Origin: Planctomycetota bacterium
Lineage (GTDB): Bacteria > Planctomycetota > Planctomycetia > JALXBF01
Direction: 5' to 3'
NCBI GenBank assembly: GCA_026991575.1
Contig: JALXBF010000164.1
Location: 1-39,395 of the forward strand
DNA: 39,395 nt
Under the pieces are notes generated by a model. That model did no database searches. It worked only from the letters and a program-made list of their open reading frames with translations, and had not been told where the DNA came from. Shown here in pieces: positions 2,830-35,697 of the stretch (its first letter is position 1; the number at the start of each line of letters is the position of its first letter). The translations under genes were made by a program, and so were the position numbers.

Positions 2830-3069
2830 CGCCGCCTGCCGCCCCGACCGAACCGACGTGACGTGCACCGGCGGACCGGATTCTCCGGCGAAACTGTTCC
2901 CCCATAGGCACACGGCCGTGATGTATCATCGCGGAAGCCACGCCGTGCATGCCACAGCGGGACGAAGCGAACTAGGTCCCCGTGGCTGCTCCTCAGGTTT
3001 CCGTGGAAACGCAGAACCGATAGCTGCGCCATCGGATTCGAACGAAGCGGTCAGTCAAAGGCAAGCGTC

Positions 3070-4500
3070 ATGGGCACTAGCGCAACGCGTAACCCTGCTG
3101 TATTGCTTGCCGCGGTCCTGGCGATCCCAGTGGTGCCGGTGGCGACCACCGCCGCCGAGAAGCCAAACATCCTATTCATCCTGGCCGACGACCTCGGCTG
3201 GGGAGACCTGGGATATTACGGCCATCCGGTACTGCGCACGCCGAACCTCGATCGCCTCGCGCGCCAGGGTACGTTGTTCACCGATTTCTACGTGAACGGT
3301 TCCGTCTGTTCGCCCAGCCGGGCAGCGTTCATGTCCGGGCTGTTTCCCGCCCGCTTGCGGATCCACGGGCACCTGGCCGACCACCGCCGTAACCAGGCCC
3401 GCGGCATGCCCGACTGGGTGGACCCGACCGTGCTGTTCTTGCCTCGGCTTCTCAAACAGGCCGGCTATGTCACCGCTCACGTCGGCAAGTGGCATCTCGG
3501 ACATGGCCGCACAGCGCCGCAGCCGTCCGCATACGGGTTCGACTACCATCGCTGCACGCTGGCAAACGGACCGGGCTTCCAACAGCACCAGAAGGACCCG
3601 TACTTTCGGGCCCGCTCTACCGCGATATTCGTTGATGAGGTGATCCGGTTCATTGAGCGGAACCGCGGCAAACCGTTCTACGTGAACCTCTGGACACTCG
3701 TACCACACGCCACACTCCATCCCACGCCAGAACAGCTGCGTCTGTACGCCTTCCTCAAGCCCAGCCCGAACTTGCCCTATGCCTCCGCTCGGCAGATCTA
3801 CTACGGCACGGTCACTGCGATGGACCGGGAGCTCGGACGGCTATTCCGCTGGCTGGACCAACAGGGGCTGACACAAAACACGCTGATTCTCTTCAGCTCA
3901 GACAATGGTCCCGAAGACATCCACATCCGCAACGCCGGGCACAGCGGAGTCGGCTCCCCTGGGCCGTTCCGCGGCCGGAAGCGGAGCTTGTACGAGGGGG
4001 GCATCCGGGTACCGTTCATCGTCCGCTGGCCCGGACACGTCCCGGCGGGCAAGGTAAACAGCAGCTCGGTGGTTGCCGCCGTCGACTTCCTGCCGACCCT
4101 GGCTGCGCTGGTGGGGATTCCGTTGCCGAAAGCTTATCGGGGAGACGGCGAGAACATGCTCGACGTGTTGCTCGGATCGGATCGACCCAGGAAGCGACCG
4201 CTGTTCTGGGAATGGCGCTTCCGGATCTACGGCTATCACTTTCACCGCAGCCCGATGCTGGCCATGCGCGACGGCAACTGGAAGCTGCTGATGAATCCGG
4301 ATGGCAGCCGGATCGAGCTGTACGATCTTAGGGAGGATCCGGGCGAAGTGGACAACAAGGCGGCCGAGCATGAGGACGTTGTTCGAAGGATGTCGGCCGA
4401 GCTGTTGGCTTGGCAGAAGACGTTGCCCCCCGGACCGATCCAGCGCCAAGCCGGCAGCAATGCGTACCCGTGGCCGAGGCAGCGGGAAGCGGACCAGTGA
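3070..4500 (+). CDS. Secreted arylsulfatase-family sulfatase
   Basis: Signal-peptide-like N-terminus, PNILFILADDLGWGD, formylglycine motif CSPSRAAFMSG, GKWHLG, SDNG and YEGGIRVPFIVRWPG. Confidence 0.95.
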   Translation: MGTSATRNPAVLLAAVLAIPVVPVATTAAEKPNILFILADDLGWGDLGYYGHPVLRTPNLDRLARQGTLFTDFYVNGSVCSPSRAAFMSGLFPARLRIHGHLADHRRNQARGMPDWVDPTVLFLPRLLKQAGYVTAHVGKWHLGHGRTAPQPSAYGFDYHRCTLANGPGFQQHQKDPYFRARSTAIFVDEVIRFIERNRGKPFYVNLWTLVPHATLHPTPEQLRLYAFLKPSPNLPYASARQIYYGTVTAMDRELGRLFRWLDQQGLTQNTLILFSSDNGPEDIHIRNAGHSGVGSPGPFRGRKRSLYEGGIRVPFIVRWPGHVPAGKVNSSSVVAAVDFLPTLAALVGIPLPKAYRGDGENMLDVLLGSDRPRKRPLFWEWRFRIYGYHFHRSPMLAMRDGNWKLLMNPDGSRIELYDLREDPGEVDNKAAEHEDVVRRMSAELLAWQKTLPPGPIQRQAGSNAYPWPRQREADQ

Positions 4501-5333
4501 GTCGAACGCAGCAAGAAACGGGCGACGACCGTCTGGACCTGGGCCGAATTGTCAGGCTCGCAACGTTGCGCACGGTCTGCTGGAGTGAACGGGTCGGTTC
4601 CACCAACGACCTGGCCCTGGCCGTCGCGCGCAGCAGCGACGTTGCACTGCCTGCGCTCTTCGTCGCCGAACACCAGTCGCGTGGCCGCGGTCGCGGCAGC
4701 AACCGGTGGTGGTCCTCGGCCGGTGCGTTGACGTTCTCGTTGCTAATCGACCCATACCGCTACCAGCTTGACCCCGACCAATGGACCCGTATTGCACTGG
4801 CCAGTGCCGTGGCCATTTGCCAGACGATCGACCCGTTGTTGCCGCCATGGATTGGCCCGGCTCGGATTCGCTGGCCGAACGATGTGTACCTCAAGGACCG
4901 CAAGGTTGCTGGCATCCTGGTCGAGAACACGACGGCCCGGGGCAACGGGCAACCTGGCGACCGGCGGCTGGTGGTGGGGATTGGCCTGAATGTGAACAAC
5001 TCGGTTCAGAAAGCTCCTGCCGAGCTGCGGCAGCGGGCGGTGGCGTTGTGCGACGTCGTCGGCCACGAGCTGGATCTGACCGGCCTGTTGGAACGGTTGC
5101 TACGAGCGTGGTTCGAGGCCGTGCACCTTTTGGGCCAGGGGGAGCTCGAGCTGGCTCGCTTCTGGCAGGCTCGCGCCGATCTGGTGGGTGAGCCGGTGGA
5201 GCTGACGACACCAGCCGGGCCCGTCAAAGGGCTATGCTGCGGCATCGCTCAGGATGGCACGCTGCTGCTGCGTACCGCGCAGGGACCGACAACGTGTGCC
5301 ACCGGCTGGAACCTTCGCCGCTGCTACGGGTAA
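4497..5333 (+). CDS. birA: Biotin--protein ligase (monofunctional BirA-type, no N-terminal HTH)
   Basis: STND, EHQSRGRGRGSNRW, RWPNDV, DRKVAGILVE and VVGIGLNV motifs. The GTG start at 4497 overlaps the sulfatase stop (GTGA). Confidence 0.9.
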   Translation: MSRTQQETGDDRLDLGRIVRLATLRTVCWSERVGSTNDLALAVARSSDVALPALFVAEHQSRGRGRGSNRWWSSAGALTFSLLIDPYRYQLDPDQWTRIALASAVAICQTIDPLLPPWIGPARIRWPNDVYLKDRKVAGILVENTTARGNGQPGDRRLVVGIGLNVNNSVQKAPAELRQRAVALCDVVGHELDLTGLLERLLRAWFEAVHLLGQGELELARFWQARADLVGEPVELTTPAGPVKGLCCGIAQDGTLLLRTAQGPTTCATGWNLRRCYG

Positions 5334-5487
5334 AGCTGCTGTGTTTGTTGGCGGCATTGCCGTACGTGTGTGTGCCAGCAGGCTGGTCTCGCGGCTCGGC
5401 GCACGGCCGCGTTAAAATTAAGGAAAACCTGTCCGCCATGGCCTACCCGCCGAGCGAAGAGCCTTTCCAACCCGTGAGGTGCCTGCC

Positions 5488-7305
5488 ATGATGATGACGC
5501 TGCGACGCAGCCTCTTCGCACTGCTGCTCGTCTCGTGCCTCCTCTACCTCGCCCACCAGAACGACGCGCTTGGGGACGGCGCCAACAACGGTGCCGCTGC
5601 CGCACAGAAGCCGGCCAAGAACAAGGCCAAGGCCGACCAGAAGAAGGACTCGAACAACGCAAACAGACCCGACGCCAGCAAGAAGCCGGCGGAGAAACGG
5701 GCCAACAAAGCCAAGCCAAAGCCTGATGCGAACCAGCCCGCCAAGAAGCCGCAAGCGAAAGGCAAGCCGGACAAGAAACAGGAGACCGGTAAGCAGCGCA
5801 AGCCGGAGGCCAAGCAAGCGAAACCTGCAGGCAAGAAGCACTCCGCGCCGCAGCAGCCGAGCGATCGGGAGAAGCCGAAGCAAGCTGCAAAGCAGGAAGA
5901 GAAGCCTGCCGATCAGGCCCGAACGGCGACTAAGCAGGAGCCGCAGCCAGCACCGGAGCAGAAAGCGGTCACCCGGCCGGTCTCCTTCATGCGCGACATC
6001 GCGCCCATCCTGGTTAGCCGCTGCGTGGCCTGCCACAACCCGCAAAAGCCCGAAGGGGACGTGCTACTGCACAACTGGCAGGCCATTCAGCAGGGCTCTG
6101 GCGGCGAGCCGCTCGTTGAGCCCGGTGAGCCGGAGCTTAGTCTGCTGGTCGAGGTGCTGCAGCCGGACTATGAGCCACGCATGCCGTACAAGGAGGAGCC
6201 TCTGCCGGCGCAGCAGCGGCACCTCTTTGAAGCATGGGTAAAGCAGGGAGCGAAGTTCGACGGACCATCAACGACTGCTTCGTTCCAGGTGCTGCTTGCT
6301 GCAGCGGCCCTATACAGGACGCCGCCGCAGGTATACCCCGCGCCGGCACCGGTCACCGCCCTGGCCTTCAGCCCCGATGGCAAGCAGCTGGCCACGGGCG
6401 GTTACCACGAGATCCTCATCTGGGACGTCGCGTCCGGCAAGCTGGTGCGGCGGATCCAGGGCGCTCCGGAGAGGGTGTACCGGTTGTGCTACAGCCCCAA
6501 CGGGTGGTGGCTAGCTTCTGCGGGGGGCACTCCCGGGCAGGCGGGCTGCGTGCAGCTGTGGGATGCACGCACGGGGGAGCCGATTCGAGAGTTGGTGCGC
6601 ACCGAGGATGCCGTCTACGGACTGGCGTTCAGCTCCGACAGTCGGTATCTGGCAGCCGGAGGATGCGACCAAACGGTACGCCTGTGGGACCTTGCCCGCA
6701 TGGGCTTCCTGAAACACACCTTCTCTGACCACGCCGACTGGGTGCTGTCGGTTGCGTTCTCGCCAGACGGCAGGTTCCTCGTGTCAGCCAGTCGGGACAA
6801 GACGTGCAAGGTTTATGACCTGACAAAGGGCGAGTTGCTCGGTACCTTCCCGGGACATACCGAAGCGGTCTACGCGGCCTTGTTCACGTCGGATGGGAAG
6901 GCAGTGGTATCTGCCGGTGAGGACAAGGTACTGCGGGTGTGGACGGTCGCTGCGCAGCCGAAACAGCAGCGCACTATCGGCGGCCACAGTGCTACGGTCT
7001 GGATGTTACACCGATTGCCCAACGGTCAGGTAGCGAGTTGCTCGGCTGACCGACGGGTCCGGATTGTCAACCCAGCCAATGGCCAGCAGGTTGCTGCATT
7101 CACTGGCCACAAGGAGTGGGTGTATGCCGTGGCGGCGTCGCCCGACGGCAAGTTAATTGCCAGCGGAGCGTACGATGGTGAGGTGCGCATCTGGGACGTT
7201 GCTGCCAAGAAGCTCGTGCGGGCGTTCGTGGCCGTGCCCACCAACGAGAACATCAAAGACGTTCCGGTTACCAAGGTCGACGCAGTGCTGGCCACACTCG
7301 AGTAA
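5488..7305 (+). CDS. Exported WD40-repeat protein with planctomycete-type cytochrome c domain and K/A/P/Q-rich N-terminal linker
   Basis: Signal peptide, then a low-complexity region, then VSFMRDIAPILVSRCVACH...RMP...WVKQGA (planctomycete cytochrome C pattern), then about 7 WD40 repeats (AFSPDG...WD). SD-like GAGGTG lies upstream of ATG 5488. Confidence 0.88.
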   Translation: MMMTLRRSLFALLLVSCLLYLAHQNDALGDGANNGAAAAQKPAKNKAKADQKKDSNNANRPDASKKPAEKRANKAKPKPDANQPAKKPQAKGKPDKKQETGKQRKPEAKQAKPAGKKHSAPQQPSDREKPKQAAKQEEKPADQARTATKQEPQPAPEQKAVTRPVSFMRDIAPILVSRCVACHNPQKPEGDVLLHNWQAIQQGSGGEPLVEPGEPELSLLVEVLQPDYEPRMPYKEEPLPAQQRHLFEAWVKQGAKFDGPSTTASFQVLLAAAALYRTPPQVYPAPAPVTALAFSPDGKQLATGGYHEILIWDVASGKLVRRIQGAPERVYRLCYSPNGWWLASAGGTPGQAGCVQLWDARTGEPIRELVRTEDAVYGLAFSSDSRYLAAGGCDQTVRLWDLARMGFLKHTFSDHADWVLSVAFSPDGRFLVSASRDKTCKVYDLTKGELLGTFPGHTEAVYAALFTSDGKAVVSAGEDKVLRVWTVAAQPKQQRTIGGHSATVWMLHRLPNGQVASCSADRRVRIVNPANGQQVAAFTGHKEWVYAVAASPDGKLIASGAYDGEVRIWDVAAKKLVRAFVAVPTNENIKDVPVTKVDAVLATLE

Positions 7306-7527
7306 GCAGAGCCGCGGAAACCGGCTGTGTCCCGATCGATTTCGGTGAGGGGCAGTGCATGAGTGCTGCCAGTGGGACCGCCCCCCAGGGGGGGCAAAGC
7401 GATGGCTGGTCCCCCCGCAGCGGTGCGGGGTTGCATTGCTGGCCTGGGGTTCGCTAATTGGACTGTGGCGGTGGCGCAGCTGTGCTGGAGCGGCGGCACG
7501 GCCGAAGCGCACCACGGCGCCGGCGCG

Positions 7528-8268
7528 CTAGCGGTCCGCGACCCACAAGATCGCCTGTCGGACCAGCCGCCGGTAGAAGGGATTGGCGTATGCTTCAGGG
7601 CCGTGGCCGAGCTGGATGTAGACCACTTTCCCGTCGCCGTACCGCTTGCACCAGCCGATGATTCTCTCGCTCTTGGGATGGTCCGTGGTCAGTAGCACGT
7701 GGACATCGCTGCTGACCCAGTAGCCTTTGTACGTTTCGTCATGGATGGTGAAATCAGTGACCCCTTGCGTCACGGGGTGATTCGGATCGGCGATGTGCAC
7801 GGCGATGCTCTGGCCGTGGGTCGGGATCCCTCTCGGGTACATCTTGCCCTGCCACTTCTGTGGCGACAGGAAGTAGCGGCCGCCGAGCATCATGTGGAAT
7901 TCTGGCCACCCCTGGTGCGCGGCCAGGGCATGGTGCAGGACCACGAGACCGCCGCCTCTCTTGACAAACCCCCGGTAGGCTGCTTTCTGTTTGTCCGTCA
8001 GCGGGCCGTTCCACATGGAGTAGGTAACGATGACGTCGAAGCGCTGCGCGAGCGTGTCGTTGAGCTGTTCGGCAGCCTTCGGGTACGCGTGATGTGTGTA
8101 GCGGATACCGGCAAAGCGATCGAACATGGCGAAAAATGCTTCCTCGTTGAATCCGTGGCCCCCGGTCAGAAGCAGCACGCGGACCGGATCTGCTGGTGAT
8201 GGGGCGCGGGAACCAAGCATGAAGGCTGCTGTGGTGGTGACCAGCAAGGCAGCAAGTAGAGGACGCAT
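7528..8268 (-). CDS. ThuA-like (trehalose utilisation / class I GATase-like) domain protein, exported
   Basis: Signal peptide, RVLLLTGGHG, GGGLVVLHHA, HPVTQGV.DF.IHDETY and YG.GKVVYIQLGH motifs. SD AGGAG lies upstream. Confidence 0.88.
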   Translation of the reverse strand: MRPLLAALLVTTTAAFMLGSRAPSPADPVRVLLLTGGHGFNEEAFFAMFDRFAGIRYTHHAYPKAAEQLNDTLAQRFDVIVTYSMWNGPLTDKQKAAYRGFVKRGGGLVVLHHALAAHQGWPEFHMMLGGRYFLSPQKWQGKMYPRGIPTHGQSIAVHIADPNHPVTQGVTDFTIHDETYKGYWVSSDVHVLLTTDHPKSERIIGWCKRYGDGKVVYIQLGHGPEAYANPFYRRLVRQAILWVADR

Positions 8269-25444: not shown

Positions 25445-25520
25445 ACTGAGCGGCTCCGTCAGCTGTAGAAGTAGTGTTGCCCGGCGCCGCAGGCGATGGT
25501 CAGCTTGTTGCGGAGAACCG

Positions 25521-26633
25521 ATGGCCGAAGAACTGTGGTACGTGTATTCGGATCGGAAGCTTCAGGATGGCAAGACCGGGCCCAGGATCGTGGCGCACAC
25601 GGAGCGGGTCAGCGACACGTTGGCCCGGCTGATGGTTCAGTTGAGCGACTATCCAGCGACGGCCTTTCCTCAGCCAATCTACAGCCACGTCATCGTGCGG
25701 TCGTCCGGGTTAGAGTACAGCATCGTGACGAAGATTTTTCCGCTGTGTGAAACGACGCGCGGTGGGCTGGATTACTTTGCCCAGCACTTCCTGTTCTCCA
25801 CCCAAGACCGGCCCAAAGGGGGACCAGCGTACCTACTGGGGCAGCCGTCCGTGTTCCTGACCTCCTGGGACGGTCGGTCCGGCAAGCTACCGTACCGGAA
25901 ACACATTCCGGACGGTGAGGATCCGCCGCTGCGTTGCGATCGCTGGCAGGACATCGCCGGCGATGCAGGCTGGGCGGGCGTATTGCTACGGCACATCGAT
26001 GAGGGAAAGCCTGAACCGATCTACCTGCTTGCCGAGACGGACGTGCCCGTGATTCACTTGCTTCGCGAAGCGCTAGCCCATCTTGCGCCCCCTCAGCGCT
26101 GGGAGCTGACCTTTTCGACCCACGAACGGCAGTTGCCCAAGAAGGTGCGATGCCAGCTACATGTCGTGCCGCCGTGGCCGAACAAAGAGGAGGAACTGCG
26201 CAAGAAAGGCAACGCGCTGGTCATCAACCTGAACCAGCCGAGGCCGTGCAACGTGGTGCACGAGATGGTTCAGCTCACTCGCCGCGGCAGTCGCGTTGGG
26301 GGCCGGGGCATCTGGCACAGCCAGCCCGCTCCGACCGCCGCGGAACGTCCGCGGCCTGCCTCTGCCACTGCAGCTGCGACCCGGCGCGCTACCACCGCGA
26401 CGTCGCAGCGCGCCGGCCGTGCCAGCCAGCGAAACAGCGGCTCGCGCCGTCCCGTGCCCCAGCTCGGTACCAGTTCGCTGGAAGGGATCTATGCGGAGAT
26501 CGATCATGCCGAGCGGCGTCGGCGACGAATGCAGCTGGTGAAGCGGATCGCCGGCAAGCTGATTGCCTTGCTTCTGGTCGGTGGCCTGCTTGGCGGCGGC
26601 GCCTACGCCGCCTGGTACTTCTGGCTCCGCTAG
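25521..26633 (+). CDS. GAP1-N2/GAP1-M-like domain protein with C-terminal TM anchor
   Basis: ATG 25521 with SD-like GGAG. The sequence MAEELWY...G..IVAHT...LSDY...PIYSH...FAQHF...GGPA and CDRWQDIAGDAGWAGVL...RWELTFST resembles, from memory, planctomycete GTPase-associated protein 1 N2 and M domains. Hydrophobic C-terminus. Confidence 0.6.
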   Translation: MAEELWYVYSDRKLQDGKTGPRIVAHTERVSDTLARLMVQLSDYPATAFPQPIYSHVIVRSSGLEYSIVTKIFPLCETTRGGLDYFAQHFLFSTQDRPKGGPAYLLGQPSVFLTSWDGRSGKLPYRKHIPDGEDPPLRCDRWQDIAGDAGWAGVLLRHIDEGKPEPIYLLAETDVPVIHLLREALAHLAPPQRWELTFSTHERQLPKKVRCQLHVVPPWPNKEEELRKKGNALVINLNQPRPCNVVHEMVQLTRRGSRVGGRGIWHSQPAPTAAERPRPASATAAATRRATTATSQRAGRASQRNSGSRRPVPQLGTSSLEGIYAEIDHAERRRRRMQLVKRIAGKLIALLLVGGLLGGGAYAAWYFWLR

Positions 26634-26742: not shown

Positions 26743-27027
26743 TCATTCGATGACCGCTTCCGTGCTGCCGCGTTCGAGACCGAGGACCTCACGGTAAACG
26801 ACGGAGCCTGCGGGCAGGCGGTAGATGTAGACGCTGTCGTGCTCAGGATCAATGAGACCGCGGAGGCCGTGTTTGAGCCGCTTGAGCTGGCTTTCGGTCA
26901 GCTCCCCCTCGAACGCCGAGTTCTGCACCCAGTTCAGGAACCGCCGCAGATACTGGCACACCTTGCCTACCCGCCTTTGCTCCACGTCGTAGACCACAAT
27001 GACAAACGGTCTGTTGCCTACCACCAT
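26743..27027 (-). CDS. cas2: CRISPR-associated endoribonuclease Cas2
   Basis: VIVVYDV...RVGKVCQYLRRFLNWVQNSAFEGEL...DSVYIY. ATG 27027 overlaps the cas1 stop. Confidence 0.96.
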   Translation of the reverse strand: MVVGNRPFVIVVYDVEQRRVGKVCQYLRRFLNWVQNSAFEGELTESQLKRLKHGLRGLIDPEHDSVYIYRLPAGSVVYREVLGLERGSTEAVIE

Positions 27028-28028
27028 GCCTTGAGCACCCGGTACGGTTGAACGCCGATCAGGTGGCGGACGAGCTTGTAGCATTCGATGCGCATGAGCT
27101 GCCGGTACGAAACGTTCCGTTTCAAGCTACGATGACGCACCGTCTGCTGCAGGACCGCCTCCCACTCACGCACGAACAGCTTGCGACCGTCCTCGTTTAG
27201 ATAGACCCCTTTCGCGCCACCAACCGCTTGAGTATGCCGATCAGGGTTCAGCATCTTGCGGTTGATCAGGCGAAAGATCAGACGATCGACCAGCAGGGGC
27301 TTGAAGATCTCAGCTATATCCAGTGCCAGGGAGAAACGCCGCTCGGACGGTTCGTGCAGATAGCTGATCGTTGGATTGAGCTGGGTCACGTAGATTTCCG
27401 AGAGGGCAGCCGAGTAGGCCAGGGCATTGCCGAAGGAGATCATGGCGTTGAGCAGGTTGTCCGGCGGGCGACGAACCCGCTTGGTAAACGGTTCGGGCAG
27501 ATCCATGATCTGGTTGAACGCGCCGTAGTAAGCGTCGCGGGATTGGCCTTCGAGGCTCATCAGGGTGGCGATGTCCGGGGCAGTCTTGACCTGCGCCATG
27601 TTCGCCTCGACGACCGCGATGATATCGCCGATCTCACGGCCGCGATTGCGGTAGTAGCGCAAGTTGCGTCGAATGTGGTAGATCGCACCGTAGACGAACT
27701 GCCGGGCGATACGCAGGCGTCGTCGGCCATTGCGGTAGTGCGCTACCTGCTGGACCAGCAGGTGGCCGCTGACGTTGCTCTCACGTGGATAGAACGTCCC
27801 CGTGTAGTAGCCATAGTAGTTGAAGAAGTGCACGGGAATGCCGGCCTGGGCTAGGAAGTTGAGCAGTTTGGTATTCAGCTCGAGTTCTGAGAAAACGTAG
27901 ATATCTCGAACGTCCTCGACGGGTATCGGACGCCGTTGGCGTTGGCCATCCTGCTCGGATTCCAAGTACAGCGTGTTCTGGCGTCGGCGTAGTCGACCGC
28001 TTCGAAACAGGTAATAGGATCTGGCCAT
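27018..28028 (-). CDS. cas1: CRISPR-associated endonuclease Cas1, type I-B-like
   Basis: YYLFRSGRLRRRQNTL, HFFNYYGYYTGTFYPRE, LEG, RRPPDNLLNAMISFGN, ISYLHEP.ERRFSLALDIAEIFKP and C-terminal KAWW, typical of the I-B (Hmari/Tneap) Cas1 clade. Confidence 0.97.
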   Translation of the reverse strand: MARSYYLFRSGRLRRRQNTLYLESEQDGQRQRRPIPVEDVRDIYVFSELELNTKLLNFLAQAGIPVHFFNYYGYYTGTFYPRESNVSGHLLVQQVAHYRNGRRRLRIARQFVYGAIYHIRRNLRYYRNRGREIGDIIAVVEANMAQVKTAPDIATLMSLEGQSRDAYYGAFNQIMDLPEPFTKRVRRPPDNLLNAMISFGNALAYSAALSEIYVTQLNPTISYLHEPSERRFSLALDIAEIFKPLLVDRLIFRLINRKMLNPDRHTQAVGGAKGVYLNEDGRKLFVREWEAVLQQTVRHRSLKRNVSYRQLMRIECYKLVRHLIGVQPYRVLKAWW

Positions 28029-28044
28029 AGCGTGATCCCCCCAG

Positions 28045-28710
28045 TCATCCCCAGCACAGCTCGCAGTACGCGCACGCCTTGCAGTAGGGCTGCCACTCAA
28101 CCTGCGGAGGCCTCGGCAGACTCTCGATAGCCGGGATGTCGTTCAGGGCCTTGATCACCTCCTGTTCAAGCTCTGGTGTCAGCTCGACTCGCTGGACACG
28201 CCGCTGGCGTGGGAATCGCAGTTCCCCGCTCAGGTCGGCGGCCCCCAGTTGCTTTAGGTACCACAGATAGTAGGCCAGCTGGAGGCGGGCGGCGTGGACG
28301 AGCTTGGGTGAATACTTGATCTCGATCAGCCGATTCCGTTGGTGGAGGAGGTCGATGCGAATGAGTTCATGCACCAGCACGTCGCGTCGGTCCTGGTGCC
28401 GATAGGCCGTCTCGTGTAGGAAGCGACCGAGGGCGACGCGGTCGGAGGTGTGTTCCAGGGTGATGTGTCGAGAGAACAGCCAGAGACGGCGGAGGCACGT
28501 GGCCCAGTAGTTGACTTTGACGCCGTTGATCCGCAGCCGACGTGCGGTTTCCGGGTCGACGCTGGGGCAGGCCCTCCGGCTGCTCTGCCGATCGCACACG
28601 CGTTGAGAACGGCATGCTACCGGCTCTGATGGTGACGACGACGCCACGGTGCTTCTGGCTGCCTGCCGTCCAGCCTGTTTCCTCATCACGTTTCGTTTTG
28701 TCGACGCCAC
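28045..28710 (-). CDS. cas4: CRISPR-associated exonuclease Cas4
   Basis: GVKVNYWATCLRRLWLF, IRIDLL...IEIKYS (RecB-like motifs), QLAYYL, and C-terminal CKACAYCELCW Fe-S cysteines. GGAGG lies 7 nt before GTG 28710. An alternative start is GTG 28599. Confidence 0.93.
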   Translation of the reverse strand: MASTKRNVMRKQAGRQAARSTVASSSPSEPVACRSQRVCDRQSSRRACPSVDPETARRLRINGVKVNYWATCLRRLWLFSRHITLEHTSDRVALGRFLHETAYRHQDRRDVLVHELIRIDLLHQRNRLIEIKYSPKLVHAARLQLAYYLWYLKQLGAADLSGELRFPRQRRVQRVELTPELEQEVIKALNDIPAIESLPRPPQVEWQPYCKACAYCELCWG

Positions 28711-29324: not shown

Positions 29325-30413
29325 ATGCGCCGAGGGTTCACGTTGATCGAGCTCTTGGTCGTTATCGCCATTATTGCCGTGTTGATTGCCCTTCTCTTGC
29401 CCGCCGTGCAGATGGCCCGAGAAGCCGCGCGACGCGCGCAGTGTGCAAACAATCTCAAACAGATCGGCCTTGCCCTGCACAACTACCACCAGGCACACGG
29501 GTACTTCCCGCCCGAAGGTAACAAGGCCTACTTCCAGCCCAGAAGCAAACGCTGGGGCCCGGGGGGAAACCAGTACTGGTCGCTGAAAGTATTCCTCTTG
29601 CCGTACATGGATCGTGCCGACATCTACAACGCGGCAAATCTGGATCTACGCGCGTACGGTGAGCCAGCGGGGTATCGTTCTTGGAGTCGGGACGCGAACC
29701 TGACCCTGCGTCGCGCGCGGATCGAATCTTTCCTCTGTCCGTCGGATCACCACTTCGACCACGCAAATCCCTACCGTACGTCGCAGAGCTATGCTCCCAA
29801 CCACGGAACGGAACGCTACTTCAACAACTGGCGCACGAACGGCATTGTCTATCGACCGGGCTGGTACCGGTACTATCAGAAGCCGCTGGGGGTCCGGGAC
29901 ATTGTCGACGGGACTGCGTTTACGGCGGCGTTCTCCGAGTGGGTGCGCGGCAGCATGGTGTGGAACCGGAGTGTGGAGGCCCGCAGGGCTCTGGCACTGC
30001 GCGACCAGGCTGCCTGGGTCTGGCAAATCCAGCCGGTCTGGATTGCCTTTCCCCGTAGTACGCATCTGGGACGTGAGGGGGATCGCCAGTGGGAGCGTCT
30101 GTGCGAGGCATCACAGATCCCGCGCTGGCACGCCAAGGGAAGCATGTGGTGGGCTTCCGCTACCGGGGCCGGCACTGGCATCGGCTTTGGGAAGCGACCG
30201 AATCGCAAGTCGTGTGCACCTTACTCGCCGCTGTGGTGGGACGTGGGTACGCACCTGATGACGGCCAGTAGCATGCACCCAGGCGGGGTAAATGTGCTGT
30301 TTGCCGACGGCCGCGTGCGGTTCATTTCTGATGAGGTCGACGAGCAGGTTTGGTTTGCCATCGGCACACGGGACGGTCAGGAGCCGATTGACGAGACGGC
30401 CCTCAGCTTCTAG
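29325..30413 (+). CDS. DUF1559 family prepilin-like protein (N-terminal methylation site, H-X9-DG C-terminal motif)
   Basis: [63 protein letters not shown]...T...SE and [20 protein letters not shown] before ATG 29325. Confidence 0.95.
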
Positions 30414-30508
30414 CAACTTCTTTGTGGCGGGCGTCCAGCAGCTCCGGCGCAGCTGGACGCCCCCCCCTTTCGCCAACGACCGTGGATCTCACCATTGGGC
30501 AGGGTGAA

Positions 30509-30724
30509 ATGCGAGTGGTACGTAGTCTGCTAACTGGCATCCTGGTAATCAGTTGCGTGATCGGATGCAGCCAGGGCCCCAAGCCGGCACCGCAGCCGGA
30601 AACAGAACAGGACGTGATGGAAGAAATGCAGCAGCTGTATGGAGATGCCAATCCGGCGAGCGGCGAGATGCCGGGTGAGGTGCCCGAAGACATGGAAAAA
30701 GCCGTCACGGGCGATCTACCATGA
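30509..30724 (+). CDS. Small putative lipoprotein accompanying the DUF1559 gene
   Basis: MRVVRSLLTGILVISCVIGC lipobox-like signal (VIGC) followed by an acidic P/E/M-rich tail. This is the position typical of DUF1559 partner genes. Confidence 0.7.
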   Translation: MRVVRSLLTGILVISCVIGCSQGPKPAPQPETEQDVMEEMQQLYGDANPASGEMPGEVPEDMEKAVTGDLP

Positions 30725-30750
30725 GAACCGATCGGTACCTACCTGCAACA

Positions 30751-30768
30751 GCCCGGCTGGGCCCTTTT
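30751..30768 (+). terminator. Possible weak intrinsic terminator after the DUF1559-lipoprotein cassette
   Basis: GCCC-ggct-GGGC short stem followed by CCTTTT, 26 nt after the stop codon. Confidence 0.25.
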
Positions 30769-31676
30769 GGTAACCAGGAACCGGCGCCTTGGAGAGTCGC
30801 TTAGCGTACGGTGCGCCCTGGAATGTTGATGCGATGCCGAGGACCTGGGGCGAGTGTGACCGGCGGGAGGGAATTCCGGTTCCGACTATTCGAGTGCTAT
30901 TGCGTACCGACCGCGCGGGGTTCGCTGGCGGTAGTTTGGTAACCTTGGTTTCCCGCCCGACTTCTTGAATCCAGCACTGCAGCGCTGCCGCGCCGGAGGG
31001 TTTTCCCCGCCGCTATGAACCGCTCAGCGCTCCCCCGACCTCGTGGCGATGCTCCCCGCGACCTGGTGGCGGCCGCCAGCCACGTACAAGGTGTGCTGCC
31101 CTTCGCGTTGCTCCCTTACGCGCGGTACCCATGCCGGCCAACGGATTCGCGTTCGCTCGGACCAGGAGGGAGTCCGATGCTCTCGCTTGCGCAACTCCCG
31201 TAGCTCCGTCCACTCACACCGGTGTGCCCTCCGGACTTGGGCGTTGGATGCCCGAGAACGCCACAAGGAAGGCGCCCTGGAGTGATATGCTGTCGAGCCA
31301 GTGGTGGACCAGCAACGTGTCGTGGGCCGCTTAACCGAAATCGTCTTGTCTTTTCCCGACAGACCTGCGGCAGCCGCGGGCCCCTCGAGGCACGCTATGG
31401 CGTGGCCAGGAACGCCGGCATCCTCGGACACGTTGTAGCCTCCTTGATCTGACGGTCCCCATTCCCGTACTGGGGGACACATGCATGTCCGCAGGCGTTT
31501 GTTTCCGATCGGGACCTGGACCCGGTACCGGCAAAGCTCCCCTTCAGGAAGGACCTGAGGCTCGCTTCATCGGCGGGCATCGATCCCGTGGAACTCGGGG
31601 CCGTGTTCGTGTAAGAAATTCGGCCCGGACCGGAGTTAGCATTAGGGGACGAGCGCCGTCCCCGAGGAGGCGTGCG

Positions 31677-32513
31677 ATGAGATTCCGGGTCCGTCTCATA
31701 CCGGTTGAGAGCGTTGCGGTTGTGCCGTGGAACTACCAACACCATCTTCAGGGCGTGCTCTACCGCGTGTTGATCGAGGAGCAGCCTGAGCTGGATGAGC
31801 TCTTGCATCGCAGCGGTTTCCCCTCAGGAGCCCGGCGGTTCCGCATGCTAACGTTCTCGAAGCTGCTGCCGCGCGCGGCCGAGACGAGCCACCATGGGCT
31901 GATCCTCCACCCACCCGTCTACTGGCTGATCAGCACCGCACTCGAGGCGGTGGCCAACGCGCTGGTACAGGGGCTGTTGAAACGAGCGGAGATCGCGGTC
32001 GGGGGACAGCAGTTCTTCATCGATCAAGTAGAAGACCAGCCCGTGCCCGACTTCAGCGCGGGGAAGATGCGTTTCGAGACTCTGTCACCCATCGTCGTAT
32101 CGCGGCCGGTCACCGATCAACGAGGTCGGTTAACCAAACAATACCTCGCGCCGGACGATCCGGAATTCTGGCAGCGCGTGGCGAGCAACCTGGCACGGAA
32201 AGCAGACGCGTTGGGCATCGAACCGGTTGGCTCGGTTCAGTTTAAGCCGATCGGTCGATGGCGGTCCCGGTTGATCTCGGTGCAGGGGGCCCGAGTCCGT
32301 GGTTACGAGGGGCGCTTTGTGGCCACTGGGGATCCGGCCCTGTTGTGCCTTGCCTATGACGTTGGGCTAGGCGAACGAAACGGCCAGGGTTTTGGCATGA
32401 TTGGGCTGATGCGCAGCGGTCGGCCTCCACAGGGCAGGCGTGGCTACGGGAGCAGCGGCAACGGGCGGCGGCTCGGCGACGGTGAACAAAGCAACGCAAA
32501 CAGCTGCCATTGA
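31677..32513 (+). CDS. cas6: CRISPR-associated endoribonuclease Cas6
   Basis: VPWNYQHHLQGVLY...LLHRSG...FRMLTFS, FETLSPIVVS, and the C-terminal Gly-rich loop YDVGLGERNGQGFGMI. SD GAGGAGG before ATG 31677. Confidence 0.95.
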   Translation: MRFRVRLIPVESVAVVPWNYQHHLQGVLYRVLIEEQPELDELLHRSGFPSGARRFRMLTFSKLLPRAAETSHHGLILHPPVYWLISTALEAVANALVQGLLKRAEIAVGGQQFFIDQVEDQPVPDFSAGKMRFETLSPIVVSRPVTDQRGRLTKQYLAPDDPEFWQRVASNLARKADALGIEPVGSVQFKPIGRWRSRLISVQGARVRGYEGRFVATGDPALLCLAYDVGLGERNGQGFGMIGLMRSGRPPQGRRGYGSSGNGRRLGDGEQSNANSCH

Positions 32514-33369
32514 CAAGACGCTGGCGGAAATCTGTCGTGAGTTCCGCCTTCCGGCGGTTGCCTCGGAGGCCCAATGGCAGCGGCTGCTAGAGTGCTTGCC
32601 CGTTGCCGTTCGTCGCCGCTTTGAGTGCTATAGCCTGGCGCTAAGCCTGTCTGGTGACCCCTTCGAGCGACGCCGACTTCAAGAGGCGCTGGCCGAACGC
32701 ACTGTCCCGCCAGGCGCCGCCCACATGCTCGAAGAGGCCCTCAGGCTGGCAGCCGCTCCCGACCTGGAGGCACGCTTCTATCGGTTCCTTGGCTCTGACC
32801 CTCAGCTGGTGGCCGTTGGCCTGGCCGGCCGCATGCGGCTGTACCGAGAGCTCCTGCCGTCTCTGGTGGCGGCGGTGACGCAGAGCGGGAGCCCGCCCAG
32901 GCGTATCCTGGACGTAGGCAGTTTCGCCGGCGTGGTCACGGTGACGATCGCTCGGGTTTTCCCGCAGGCCCACGTGATCGGCATCGAACGGGACGTGCGG
33001 TGGGTCGAGGTGGCCCGAGACTTAGCCCGACGCCTGGCCGTGGGCAATGTGCGCTTTGAACCAGCGGACTGCTGGGCGTACAACCCGGAGTGCAGCGTCG
33101 ACCAGATCTGGTGGTTGTTCGTAACGTCAGGTCAGGCGCCCGAGGATCTCCTGGGGGCCATCCTGAGCCGTGCCCGTAGCTGGCTTCGAGTTGGTGGACG
33201 GCTCATCCTGCTGGAGCGCTGGCAACAAGACGTGGACTTGCTCATCCGCTCTGCCGCGCGCGTGGCCGGGTTGGCCATTGGCGATGTGCTTCCCGTCCGA
33301 TGGCACTGCCCCGCGGAAGGCGACCAGCTGCAGAGAACCAATGCGTACTTATTGGACCGCGTCTCGTAA
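32440..33369 (+). CDS. Class I SAM-dependent methyltransferase with uncharacterised N-terminal helical region
   Basis: RRILDVGSFAG (motif I), VIGIERD (motif II), NVRFEPAD and WLRVGGRLILLE. The start is uncertain (GTG 32440 or 32482). Overlaps the cas6 3' end. Confidence 0.82.
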   Translation: MATGAAATGGGSATVNKATQTAAIDKTLAEICREFRLPAVASEAQWQRLLECLPVAVRRRFECYSLALSLSGDPFERRRLQEALAERTVPPGAAHMLEEALRLAAAPDLEARFYRFLGSDPQLVAVGLAGRMRLYRELLPSLVAAVTQSGSPPRRILDVGSFAGVVTVTIARVFPQAHVIGIERDVRWVEVARDLARRLAVGNVRFEPADCWAYNPECSVDQIWWLFVTSGQAPEDLLGAILSRARSWLRVGGRLILLERWQQDVDLLIRSAARVAGLAIGDVLPVRWHCPAEGDQLQRTNAYLLDRVS

Positions 33370-33486
33370 TCAACCCTGCGGGTCACGTGGCTCCTGTCCG
33401 GATCCTCACGCCGGCGCCGGCGGCAAGTCCCGGTGGTTCTGTCCTCACGGGAGCCAGCGTCGCAGCAGCCGGATCCCGCCAAGCCA

Positions 33487-35697
33487 TTAGCCTCCATCGG
33501 ATGGTTCAGCCGATTGTCCTCGCGGTGGCGCGGCTGTCGTTCCTTCATGGTTCCGTTGCCATTCGATCCGGCCTAAACGCATGACCCAGTGGAGACGGGC
33601 CAGGAGCTGGACGTCCTCGAGTGGGTTGCCGTCGACAGCGATCAAGTCTGCCATGGTGCCAGGCTGGACCCGTCCGGCCGGTAGGCCGAGCCAATCGGCG
33701 CAGCGCGACGTGGCTGCTTTAAGCACCTCGATCGGGGGCAGGCCGGCTTCCTGCAGTAAGCGCAGCTCGCGATGCAGGGCTGCACCATGAAACGTGCCAG
33801 GATTCCCGGCATCGGAGCCGGCTACAATGGCGACCCTGGCCTGGTAGGCGGCGCGGACGTTGGCCATGGCTTGGGCAAGCATGGCGGCGCGAGCCTGGGC
33901 CGGAATGAGCGAACCCATGAACCGCGCGAAAGGCTGTTTGAGCACCTCCTGTTCGTTGGCCGACAGTGTCTCGCGCACGAACGGCTCCTCGAGGATCCGC
34001 TCCGCCTCGGTCATCCTCATCAGCCCTTCATAGACGGCGAGAGTCGGGATCAGCACAGCGGATCGTTCAACCATCGTCTGCCATGCCGCCTGCGGCACGG
34101 CACCCGTCACGGGGACGTGCTCGATGCCGTCTGCGCCCATTTCGGCCGCGGCAAGCAGTTCGGCGGGTTCGTCGACATGGACCGAAATACGCAGGCCTGC
34201 GGCGTGTGCTTGGCGGATGAGTTCGCGAAGGATTTCCGGTTCCAGCCGCCGGTAACTGAAGTAGGGCGGAATGCCACCGCCGTAGACCGCTTTGATTGCG
34301 TCTACCTCGCCAAGGCAATCCGCCAGCGCCTCGGGTACTTCGGCAACGGCTGCCAGCTCTCGCACAAACTCGCGCTTGTCCGGCATGAACACAGCGAACT
34401 GGGCCGGATGGCCGCCGGGCGCGGTAAACAGCGGACCGACAAGCACAAACGCAGGGCCCCGCAGGAAGCCGCTCCGCAGCGAATCGCGCACGCTCAGGAC
34501 AACGTTCTTCGCGTCGCCGCAGCTCTTGACCATCGTCACGCCGCACCGGAGGTAGCGTTTCAAGTGTTCCCGCACCAGTTTCCTGGGCTCCGTCGTGAAC
34601 GCCCCGCCGAAGAACAGCCCCCCTGAGGTCAGGTGCACGTGAGCGTCTCCTAGGCCGGGCAGAACGGTCAACTTACGAGCGTCCACTAGCGTTGCTCCGG
34701 CCGGGGGCGGCTCGTAGCCGTCAACCACATCCGTGATCCGCCCGGCGCGGATCTTGATCGTGACCCGTGAACGAAGCTGCTCGGACGTACCATCCCACAG
34801 CCTGCCAGCATGCACGTAGACGGTCCCGGTCGGAAGCAGGGTGAAAGCGATGACGGCTTTCAGCACTCGCGGCGTTGCAAGCAGGCCGACGATCAAGGCC
34901 GCGCTAGTCAGCCACTGGCTTGGCCGCAGCGCCGTGAACGGGTCCCAGCGGAACACTCCGATGGCCAGAGCAAGGCCGAGCACGGCGGTAACCACTAGCG
35001 AGATCGCGGCCAGCAGAATCTCGGCCATCTCCGGCGACGCCTCACCGACAGACTCGGCCGCCCTGACCATGACGCCCAGCGGGTTGTATTCGCCGATTTG
35101 ACGCAGCCAGGAGGGTAGGAACTCGGCCGGGATCGTCGCACCGCTGAGGAACATCATCGGCAGGAAAAGCGTTTGCCCGACGGCCGGCACCAGCTTTGCA
35201 CTCGGCACCGTGGCGGCAATGATTAGCCCGAGTGCCAGTGCCGTCAGGGCTCCACAACCCAGGATGAGGACGGCAAGCGGCAGATGCACGGGGCCAGAGG
35301 GCGCCACCACGATAAGCAGTACGGTGAGCTGAACCGCCAGCGATATCCCCCCGACGATGCAGAAGGCCGTCGCTTCGGCCAACAGCAGAAGGGCCGGCGG
35401 AAGCGGGGTGACCAGGTAACGCCGCAGCACGCCACGCTCGCGCCACGTTACCAGCTGTGTCGGCAGGCTGAAGAGTCCCATCGCGATCATGTTGATGGCG
35501 ACGACCCTGAGGATGAGCCGCCAGTGCTCCTCGGCCGGTAGCCGCGCGAAGATTACCGTGAACGAGACGGCAAAGATGATGGGAAACGCCAGCGTCCAGA
35601 ACACACTCTGCCGGTCGCGCAGCCACAGCCGCAGCGACACAGCCGTGGACTTCAGATAGGCTCGGATCACTCGTCTCGTTCCGCCGGTTTCAGTCAT
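33487..35697 (-). CDS. ABC-2 type transporter permease fused to a metal-dependent amidohydrolase
   Basis: The N-terminal ~250 aa is an ABC-2 permease (RDRQSVFWTLAFP, RERGVLRRYLVTP, PMMFLSGA..P...LP.WL, FRW). The C-terminal part is an amidohydrolase (VLPGLGDAHVH, IKAV, SVHV, GIEHV, AGSDAG, ADLIAVDGNPLED). Confidence 0.9.
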   Translation of the reverse strand: MTETGGTRRVIRAYLKSTAVSLRLWLRDRQSVFWTLAFPIIFAVSFTVIFARLPAEEHWRLILRVVAINMIAMGLFSLPTQLVTWRERGVLRRYLVTPLPPALLLLAEATAFCIVGGISLAVQLTVLLIVVAPSGPVHLPLAVLILGCGALTALALGLIIAATVPSAKLVPAVGQTLFLPMMFLSGATIPAEFLPSWLRQIGEYNPLGVMVRAAESVGEASPEMAEILLAAISLVVTAVLGLALAIGVFRWDPFTALRPSQWLTSAALIVGLLATPRVLKAVIAFTLLPTGTVYVHAGRLWDGTSEQLRSRVTIKIRAGRITDVVDGYEPPPAGATLVDARKLTVLPGLGDAHVHLTSGGLFFGGAFTTEPRKLVREHLKRYLRCGVTMVKSCGDAKNVVLSVRDSLRSGFLRGPAFVLVGPLFTAPGGHPAQFAVFMPDKREFVRELAAVAEVPEALADCLGEVDAIKAVYGGGIPPYFSYRRLEPEILRELIRQAHAAGLRISVHVDEPAELLAAAEMGADGIEHVPVTGAVPQAAWQTMVERSAVLIPTLAVYEGLMRMTEAERILEEPFVRETLSANEQEVLKQPFARFMGSLIPAQARAAMLAQAMANVRAAYQARVAIVAGSDAGNPGTFHGAALHRELRLLQEAGLPPIEVLKAATSRCADWLGLPAGRVQPGTMADLIAVDGNPLEDVQLLARLHWVMRLGRIEWQRNHEGTTAAPPRGQSAEPSDGG

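Follow-up and report, generated by a model that had tools for sequence, protein, structure and literature searches.

In contig JALXBF010000164.1 of the Planctomycetota bacterium assembly GCA_026991575.1 (39,395 nt, referred to here as the window), the cas6 gene of a CRISPR system overlaps, in a different reading frame, a gene for an S-adenosylmethionine (SAM)-dependent methyltransferase. The two are read here, with a probability of roughly 0.85, as separate overlapping genes of one operon which are probably translationally coupled. As judged from comparison with its homologues, the methyltransferase stands on its own as a protein of about 295 aa, and its conserved part starts where the cas6 stop codon lies. 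A preliminary description of this locus had offered a choice between a coupled operon and a Cas6-methyltransferase fusion lying one base away. The coupled operon was supported, with coupling as its probable rather than observed component, and the fusion was not: a second assembly shows no insertions or deletions (indels) at the junction, the homologues are free-standing at the cas6 stop, and no fused form was found in two database-wide searches.

The junction sequence is correct as assembled. The window contig (C164) forms part of a 4.96-Mb genome (G000) of 191 contigs, with a completeness of 97.8% and a contamination of 0.48%. The DUF1559/N-methyl proteins encoded in the window point to a planctomycete. 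A contig from a second, independently built assembly (Logan, run X1; 15,459 nt, word depth 39.5) was compared with positions 31600-33400 of the window (1,801 bases), and no differing letter and no gap was observed. The interval 32410-32510, at which the preliminary description had proposed looking for indels, is therefore identical in both assemblies, a comparison made at the level of assemblies. A run from a second study (X2) contributed a strain about 96% identical to the window in five short pieces covering 17 of 30 bins, and within the covered bins substitutions were present and indels were not. No insertion or deletion over 31600-33400 was listed in any run; run X4 contributed no coverage.

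The methyltransferase frame lies at +1 relative to cas6, is free of stop codons from 32410 and ends at 33369; the interval 32410-32513 (104 nt) is open in both frames, in agreement with the roughly 100 nt first described. Two GTG codons are present in this frame, at 32440 (giving 309 aa) and at 32482 (giving 295 aa). Translation most likely starts at GTG 32482 and the overlap is most likely 32 nt, because the N-termini of the homologues, the database form of the protein (P0001, 295 aa, which starts at this codon) and the structural model all fit this start. The initial methionines of the closest full-length homologues, P0002 (289 aa, 56% identical to the window methyltransferase) and P0003 (275 aa, 38-39% identical), align with the window residues AAIDKTL, and in an alignment of 17 sequences including relatives of 420-440 aa (A3) each protein starts 4-13 residues before the first conserved column. 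The stretch from 32410 onward had been read as a flexible linker (VATGAAATGGGSAT). This reading was abandoned, as the stretch had no counterpart in any of the 16 aligned methyltransferase homologues and these proteins start downstream of it. The guanine-plus-cytosine (GC) content by codon position discriminated neither the choice of start nor the coding frame within the overlap.

The doubly open stretch is unremarkable for a window with a GC content of 63.9%. At the 3' ends of 16 other plus-strand open reading frames (ORFs), the open length of the alternative frames had a median of 126 nt and reached 100 nt or more in 19 of 32 cases. Neither methyltransferase GTG has a clear Shine-Dalgarno (SD) sequence, as had been stated before, the best anti-SD duplexes being -3.1 and -5.3 kcal/mol; an SD stronger than -6 kcal/mol was likewise absent at 13 of 21 other putative starts, scored at longest-ORF starts and with an anti-SD motif not derived from the genome's own 16S rRNA. 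A doubly open stretch of about 100 nt and a start lacking an SD are no more than chance in this GC-rich window. Removal of a single base within 32410-32510 would indeed join the Cas6 and methyltransferase frames, and in this sense one base separates from a fusion every pair of genes that overlap in different frames.

Fused proteins were sought among relatives of both partners. A HMMER pass over 1.84 billion representative proteins returned 303 methyltransferase matches at E ≤ 1e-3, of which 13 reached E ≤ 1e-10; these 13 are 117-439 aa long and aligned from near their N-termini. Seven of the 150 matches listed (of the 303) exceed 500 aa, and the five of these seven that were scanned were all double (tandem) methyltransferases without a Cas6 domain. 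In P0140, also longer than 500 aa, the match occupies residues 51-160 and leaves no room for an upstream Cas6, and P0019 (6,578 aa) lay outside the scan. No Cas6-methyltransferase fusion was seen among these 150 listed matches or in a search for longer Cas6 relatives, which returned none and is weak evidence by the tool's own rating. Cas6 is fused to other enzymes in some CRISPR systems, for example in Cas6-RT-Cas1 (RT, reverse transcriptase); unlike such fusions, the window locus has two reading frames and two proteins. As in the preliminary description, no described pairing of Cas6 with a methyltransferase was found in the literature on Cas6 accessories, CRISPR-linked genes and CRISPR RNA (crRNA) methylation. 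The word methyltransferase has 0 occurrences in the main text of a preprint on CRISPR-linked genes (10.1101/270033), the supplements of which could list one.

The overlapping pair recurs. A second copy was observed on another contig of the same genome (C19), where it lies directly 3' of cas3 and ends a type I-B effector operon of which the four effector frames are intact. On this contig the methyltransferase ATG is at 7685 and cas6 ends at 7701, giving a 17-nt overlap in the same +1 frame as in the window. An intact overlapping cas6-methyltransferase pair is almost certainly present in one other organism, as indicated by two database proteins, a Cas6 (P0153) 64% identical to that of the window and a methyltransferase (P0002) 86% identical to the C19 remnant. 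The same 14,013 nt are given as the longest contig for both proteins, and a single stretch of DNA could encode both the end of P0153 (DGDLC-stop) and the beginning of P0002 (MVTCVE), as it does DGDVC-stop and MVTCVE on C19. Three of the four loci with the short form of the methyltransferase thus lie beside cas6 (the window, C19 and, by this deduction, P0153/P0002), and the fourth, in genome G001, is cut by a contig end. The conserved pairing is a new result of this analysis, and its recurrence lends some support to the possible meaning that had been attached to it. A gene with BNR and LamG domains is located 3' of both pairs in G000. Because these two paralogues are 76% identical, the window contig and C19 share a duplicated segment (cas6, methyltransferase, BNR), and because of this segmental paralogy the known cas6-methyltransferase cases are not independent and may descend from one ancestral arrangement.

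The distribution of the short methyltransferase is narrow. With P0002 as the query (E ≤ 1e-8), 10 of 401 genomes of the class gave a match, and long matches were obtained only in G000 and in G001, which belongs to the same family. The other eight matched in the methyltransferase core only, and six of these, from one family (f7), carry longer relatives. Within a sample of 401 genomes of the phylum the short form occurred in G000 only, and one other genome gave a weak match (E 3.5e-11). In G001 the sole cas6 found (42% identical) is followed by a gap of 476 nt and an alpha/beta-hydrolase gene, and the methyltransferase is at the start of another contig. A cas6 match (TIGR01877) was found in none of five genomes with longer methyltransferase relatives, and in one genome with such a relative (G033) the neighbours of the methyltransferase are not cas genes. 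More distant Cas6 relatives in G010 (39% identical) and G105 (35%) have tails of 8-9 residues and no methyltransferase downstream; in G010 the order is cas1-cas2-cas6, followed by a 16-repeat array. Further contexts were looked for in a scan of genome contigs, which gave one unrelated Thiobacillus match over 32 residues, and in a metagenome scan, which gave only the G001 contig again and one weak match of 1,174 nt. The expectation that methyltransferase homologues adjoin cas genes was borne out for the closest homologues (P0153/P0002 by deduction) and failed for the distant ones. Interlocking with cas6 is conserved, yet confined to one narrow lineage, and is explicable by common descent. Separately, a head-to-tail tandem repeat of about 75 nt was observed 3' of the related cas6 in G105 (contig C5, 484-986; locus L042), with 6-7 spacer-free copies 66-93% identical to the reference copy; this is not a normal CRISPR array.

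These observations bear on two explanations in which a joined protein is, or was, made. The first is a true Cas6-methyltransferase fusion which has been split by a one-nucleotide assembly or sequencing error, or by a very recent frameshift mutation. The single base needed to join the frames, and the presence in the window of another gene (BNR/LamG) that is frameshifted relative to its paralogue, are set against the agreement of the independent assembly at a word depth of 39.5 without a gap, the same two-frame layout in the C19 paralogue and, as deduced, in P0153/P0002, homologues that begin as separate proteins, and the lack of a fused relative among those searched; this explanation is very improbable. 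Still less probable is a programmed +1 frameshift of the ribosome at the cas6 stop or close to it, which would yield some Cas6-methyltransferase alongside free Cas6. A +1 shift of the prfB type uses a slippery pre-stop codon that re-pairs in the +1 frame and an upstream SD-like stimulator. The regions 32490-32516 of the window and 7680-7705 of C19 were inspected, and the pre-stop codons (window, CAT TGA C; C19, TGT TGA G) were judged to disallow +1 re-pairing of the P-site tRNA, differ between the two loci, and have no SD-like stimulator just upstream. In favour of such a shift, the methyltransferase frame of either locus has the cas6 stop among its first 5-10 codons, such that a shift would join the Cas6 tail to the conserved methyltransferase. 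On this inspection a prfB-type site is not supported at either locus.

In the favoured reading of two overlapping genes, both would be transcribed from upstream of cas6, and the methyltransferase, which lacks its own SD, would depend for its translation mainly on ribosomes coming from cas6. Cas6 would be the crRNA endonuclease in use by a type I-B system whose parts are scattered across the genome, with the adaptation genes in the window, the effector genes on C19 together with a dead cas6 and methyltransferase, and the arrays on other contigs, and the methyltransferase would be a lineage-restricted class I SAM enzyme travelling with cas6 in this planctomycete lineage. As in known coupled overlapping operon pairs, the first gene stops within the beginning of the second, which has no SD. 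Unlike in these pairs, where the usual overlap is 1 or 4 nt, the overlap is 32 nt in the window and 17 nt on C19; other pairs in the window overlap by 4 nt (19797/19800, 22709/22712 and 24680/24683). Several points weigh against the favoured reading. An overlap of 32 nt is long for coupling by termination and reinitiation, and both the coupling and the co-transcription are predictions. GTG 32440 is a possible alternative start codon. The adjacency of P0153 and P0002 was deduced and not seen. The sample of run X1 is probably the one from which the window was assembled, so that its agreement tests the assembly and not the reads, and the coverage of the independent strain in run X2 omits 32429-32697.

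The product of cas6 has the family features of a Cas6 endoribonuclease, and its catalysis is predicted. It matched TIGR01877 (115.6 bits, cut-off 58.65; residues 53-242), PF01881 (100.2 bits, cut-off 23), PF21350 (55.1 bits, cut-off 27) and the PADLOC Cas6b model (E 1.8e-61). It carries a glycine-rich loop (GFGM, residues 238-241, coordinates 32388-32399) and a conserved histidine in its N-terminal half; Y29, H44 and G238-F239-G240 are invariant across 14 aligned Cas6 sequences. CRISPR arrays and class 1 effector genes were found elsewhere in the genome, as expected for membership of this family. The SD duplex of cas6 (-10.5 kcal/mol) is the strongest among the 23 starts scored. The extension of about 35 aa past the glycine-rich loop that had been reported earlier was counted as 37 residues. 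Tails of 13-40 aa past GFGM, in which lysine plus arginine exceed aspartate plus glutamate, are present in the seven closest Cas6 sequences (that of the window included), and seven more distant sequences end at most about 10 aa past the loop. Since the Cas6 of G001 has a 40-residue tail although no methyltransferase gene lies 3' of its cas6, the long tail characterizes this Cas6 clade and does not result from the overlap. Upstream of cas6, about 950 nt (30730-31660) hold no supported gene, and tandem repeats were observed at 31029-31071 (period 23) and 31094-31122 (period 15). No CRISPR repeat, Rfam match or promoter-like site was found in 30730-31660. A Rfam search of 30300-33700 at E ≤ 1 gave no match, and a promoter and terminator scan of 30400-33700 gave no promoter-like site and one terminator-like site, which was on the minus strand and did not exceed shuffled sequences.

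The downstream gene encodes a class I SAM methyltransferase, as seen from its profile matches (Methyltransf_31, 37.0 bits, and Methyltransf_25, 33.8 bits, both with a cut-off of 27), its SAM motif I, in which all 17 aligned family members share D144, G146 and G150, and its predicted Rossmann-like fold. The AlphaFold2 model of the 295-aa form (mean predicted local distance difference test score, pLDDT, 95.4) comprises an all-helical N-terminal domain (aa 3-133) and a Rossmann methyltransferase domain (aa 134-295). The structure of the N-terminal region, which the preliminary description had suggested predicting, is in this model an all-helical domain whose first helix begins at residue 3, with a pLDDT of at least 90 from there. 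A C-terminal domain of about 130 aa, which the 420-440-aa relatives carry, is missing from the short, cas6-linked methyltransferases (275-295 aa). The isoelectric points of the methyltransferases (7.0-8.6) are near neutral, compared with 9.7-10.0 for the basic Cas6 proteins.

Comparisons of fold and sequence gave no hint of the substrate. VIA-align returned a flat list (Z 16.6-18.6) across class I methyltransferases acting on RNA, protein, lipid and small molecules, and the ESM Atlas returned generic class I methyltransferases. The top Foldseek matches were small-molecule O-methyltransferases (DnrK, SibL; E about 1e-8), and HemK was best in the PDB profile search (E 2.9e-12), with a match confined to about 80 residues of the SAM-binding core. 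DnrK/SibL and PrmC/HemK share with the window protein a helical N-terminal domain followed by a Rossmann methyltransferase domain, and differ from it by low query-normalised template modelling scores (0.42-0.51), 15-24% identity and a sequence match in the core only. NCBIfam gave sub-threshold matches only (e.g. CbiT, PrmC). Prediction of a complex between Cas6 (alignment A4) and the methyltransferase (A3) scored 0.00 in both runs, which is evidence neither way. The best match in the PADLOC defence library was mads_2 (PDLC04134, mad2; E 1.7e-14, 51.5 bits, residues 136-245), and it covers 110 of 492 profile positions (positions 289-396), corresponding to the SAM-binding core. Mad2 is described as the N6 DNA methyltransferase predicted for the MADS defence system (10.1101/2023.03.30.534895), which is reported to act jointly with CRISPR-Cas in Pseudomonas aeruginosa (10.1101/2023.03.30.534895; PMC13662399). 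The likeness is one of the SAM-binding core. By inspection, the 295-aa protein is without the (D/N)PP(Y/F/W) motif IV, and unlike in a MADS operon no mad-like genes adjoin it, its neighbours being cas6, an ABC-2/amidohydrolase protein and an ABC ATPase. The missing motif IV, the lack of mad neighbours and the partial profile match led to rejection of this protein as a MADS mad2 or N6-adenine DNA methyltransferase.

Within the two-gene reading, the methyltransferase is probably a passenger, which common ancestry and the overlap itself keep where it is. It might instead be a CRISPR accessory which works with Cas6, methylating pre-crRNA or crRNA, a Cas protein or another Cas6-directed substrate; this is compatible with two genes and is a tentative possibility. 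The overlapping pair has been kept between copies that have diverged to the identities given above (64% for Cas6, 56% for the methyltransferase), and the C19 copy sits inside the type I-B operon, where both of its members have decayed and the four upstream effector genes are intact. As a matter of speculation, a partner protein could replace the C-terminal domain that the cas6-linked methyltransferases lack. Set against this, the two G000 copies lie in one duplicated segment with a gene (BNR/LamG) that is not a cas gene, the five genomes with longer methyltransferase relatives gave no cas6 match, and the G001 cas6 precedes a gap and a hydrolase gene, with the methyltransferase on another contig. 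The cas6 relatives of G010 and G105 are not followed by a methyltransferase, the near-neutral isoelectric point is unlike that of the basic Cas6, and no substrate emerged from the comparisons. The narrower proposal, that the methyltransferase, having lost the C-terminal domain, is a dedicated coupled partner which Cas6 steers to repeat RNA or Cascade and which methylates crRNAs or Cas proteins, is doubtful.

Table 1. Positions of the genes, arrays and sequence elements considered in this study. Coordinates are those of the window unless a contig is named.
Feature	Position	Strand	Basis or remark
cas6, Cas6b-type endoribonuclease, 278 aa	31677..32513	+	ATG 31677, TGA 32511-32513
Shine-Dalgarno-like GAGGAGG, 6 nt 5' of cas6 ATG	31664..31670	+	Sequence; anti-SD duplex -10.5 kcal/mol
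Cas6 C-terminal tail, 37 aa, basic, low-complexity	32400..32510	+	Beyond GFGM; outside every Cas6 model
Open stretch in +1 frame, probably untranslated	32410..32481	+	Without counterpart in homologues
cas6/methyltransferase overlap, most likely 32 nt (74 nt with GTG 32440)	32482..32513	+	GTG 32482 is start of database form P0001; N-termini of homologues
Class I SAM-dependent methyltransferase, 295 aa	32482..33369	+	Pfam, AlphaFold2 model, fold comparison
SAM-binding motif I, LDVGSFAG	32908..32931	+	Sequence
cas4 (longest ORF)	28045..28710	-	TIGR00372, 77.5 bits, cut-off 65
cas1, type I-B (longest ORF)	27018..28100	-	TIGR03641 cas1_HMARI, 435.8 bits, cut-off 304.1; PF01867
cas2	26743..27084	-	TIGR01573, 40.5 bits, cut-off 24.5
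cas8b	C19 (L019), 1281-2825		PADLOC, E 1.2e-60
cas7, type I-B	C19 (L019), 2812-3891		TIGR02585, E 5.8e-53
cas5	C19 (L019), 3876-4616		NCBIfam
cas3 with HD domain	C19 (L019), 4595-6805		NCBIfam
cas6, broken	C19 (L019), 6863-7701		In-frame TAG 7226-7228; frame change near 7325
Methyltransferase remnant, 117 aa	C19 (L019), 7685-8038		Both protein ends kept; in-frame deletion of about 170 residues including SAM motif
CRISPR array	C47, 416-900		37-nt repeat
CRISPR array	C96, 30571-31130		37-nt repeat
CRISPR array	C182, 4927-6010		37-nt repeat
CRISPR array	C187, 8433-9890		37-nt repeat

The cas genes and arrays of this genome are dispersed (Table 1). No CRISPR array was found in the window, where the G000 repeat was not detected within 3 mismatches. 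The four arrays on C47, C96, C182 and C187 contain 7, 8, 15 and 20 repeat copies, and none of them shares a contig with the cas genes. Their common 37-nt repeat ends in ATTGAAAC (orientation as on C182), and the repeat of the array in G010 also ends in GGGATTGAAAC. The spacers of the four arrays look AT-richer than the genome, and a similar sequence flanks one end of each array. Type I-B loci with Cas6b share with this genome the Cas6 profile, the I-B Cas1, Cas8b, Cas7, Cas5, Cas3 and arrays. They differ in that the G000 system is split over at least six contigs, that cas6 ends the effector operon (C19) or stands alone (window), and that Cas6 carries the basic 13-40-aa tail of its clade and is overlapped at the 3' end of its gene by a methyltransferase gene. 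The window cas6 is, we infer, the copy that serves this split system.

In the BNR/LamG gene of the window, the frame of the N-terminal part (36683-36988, ..ADWRNLRNGY..) is out of frame with the body (36921-38702), with a shift near 36965 as judged against the C19 paralogue (L019, 8728-10473); the second single-base frameshift that had been noted at about 36965 is therefore present. The shared segment shows reciprocal decay, with cas6 and the methyltransferase dead on C19 and the BNR gene shifted in the window. Among the other neighbours, an ORF at 25500-26633 on the plus strand, which has a GAP1-M domain (GTPase-associated protein 1, middle domain; PF20014, E 1.4e-10) and gave no NCBIfam or PADLOC match, converges on cas2. 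On the minus strand, a single ORF of 736 aa (33487-35697) combines ABC-2 permease (aa 21-214) and amidohydrolase (aa 344-701) domains; the gene directly upstream, on the same strand, encodes an ABC ATPase (35694-36827).

The apparent near-fusion resolves into an ordinary case, with sound sequence, separate proteins and an overlap in GC-rich DNA. The interest that remains is modest, and lies in a rare methyltransferase subfamily whose genes have remained interlocked with cas6 while both diverged substantially. If the methyltransferase does act on crRNA or Cas proteins, this would be an extra modification step in type I CRISPR biology, and methylation of crRNA or Cas proteins after processing is a step that is not known to have been described for any CRISPR system. 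The locus also appears to show clearly how complementary decay of duplicated parts can leave a type I-B system functional, in which an effector operon with a dead cas6 would be served by a live cas6 beside the adaptation genes.

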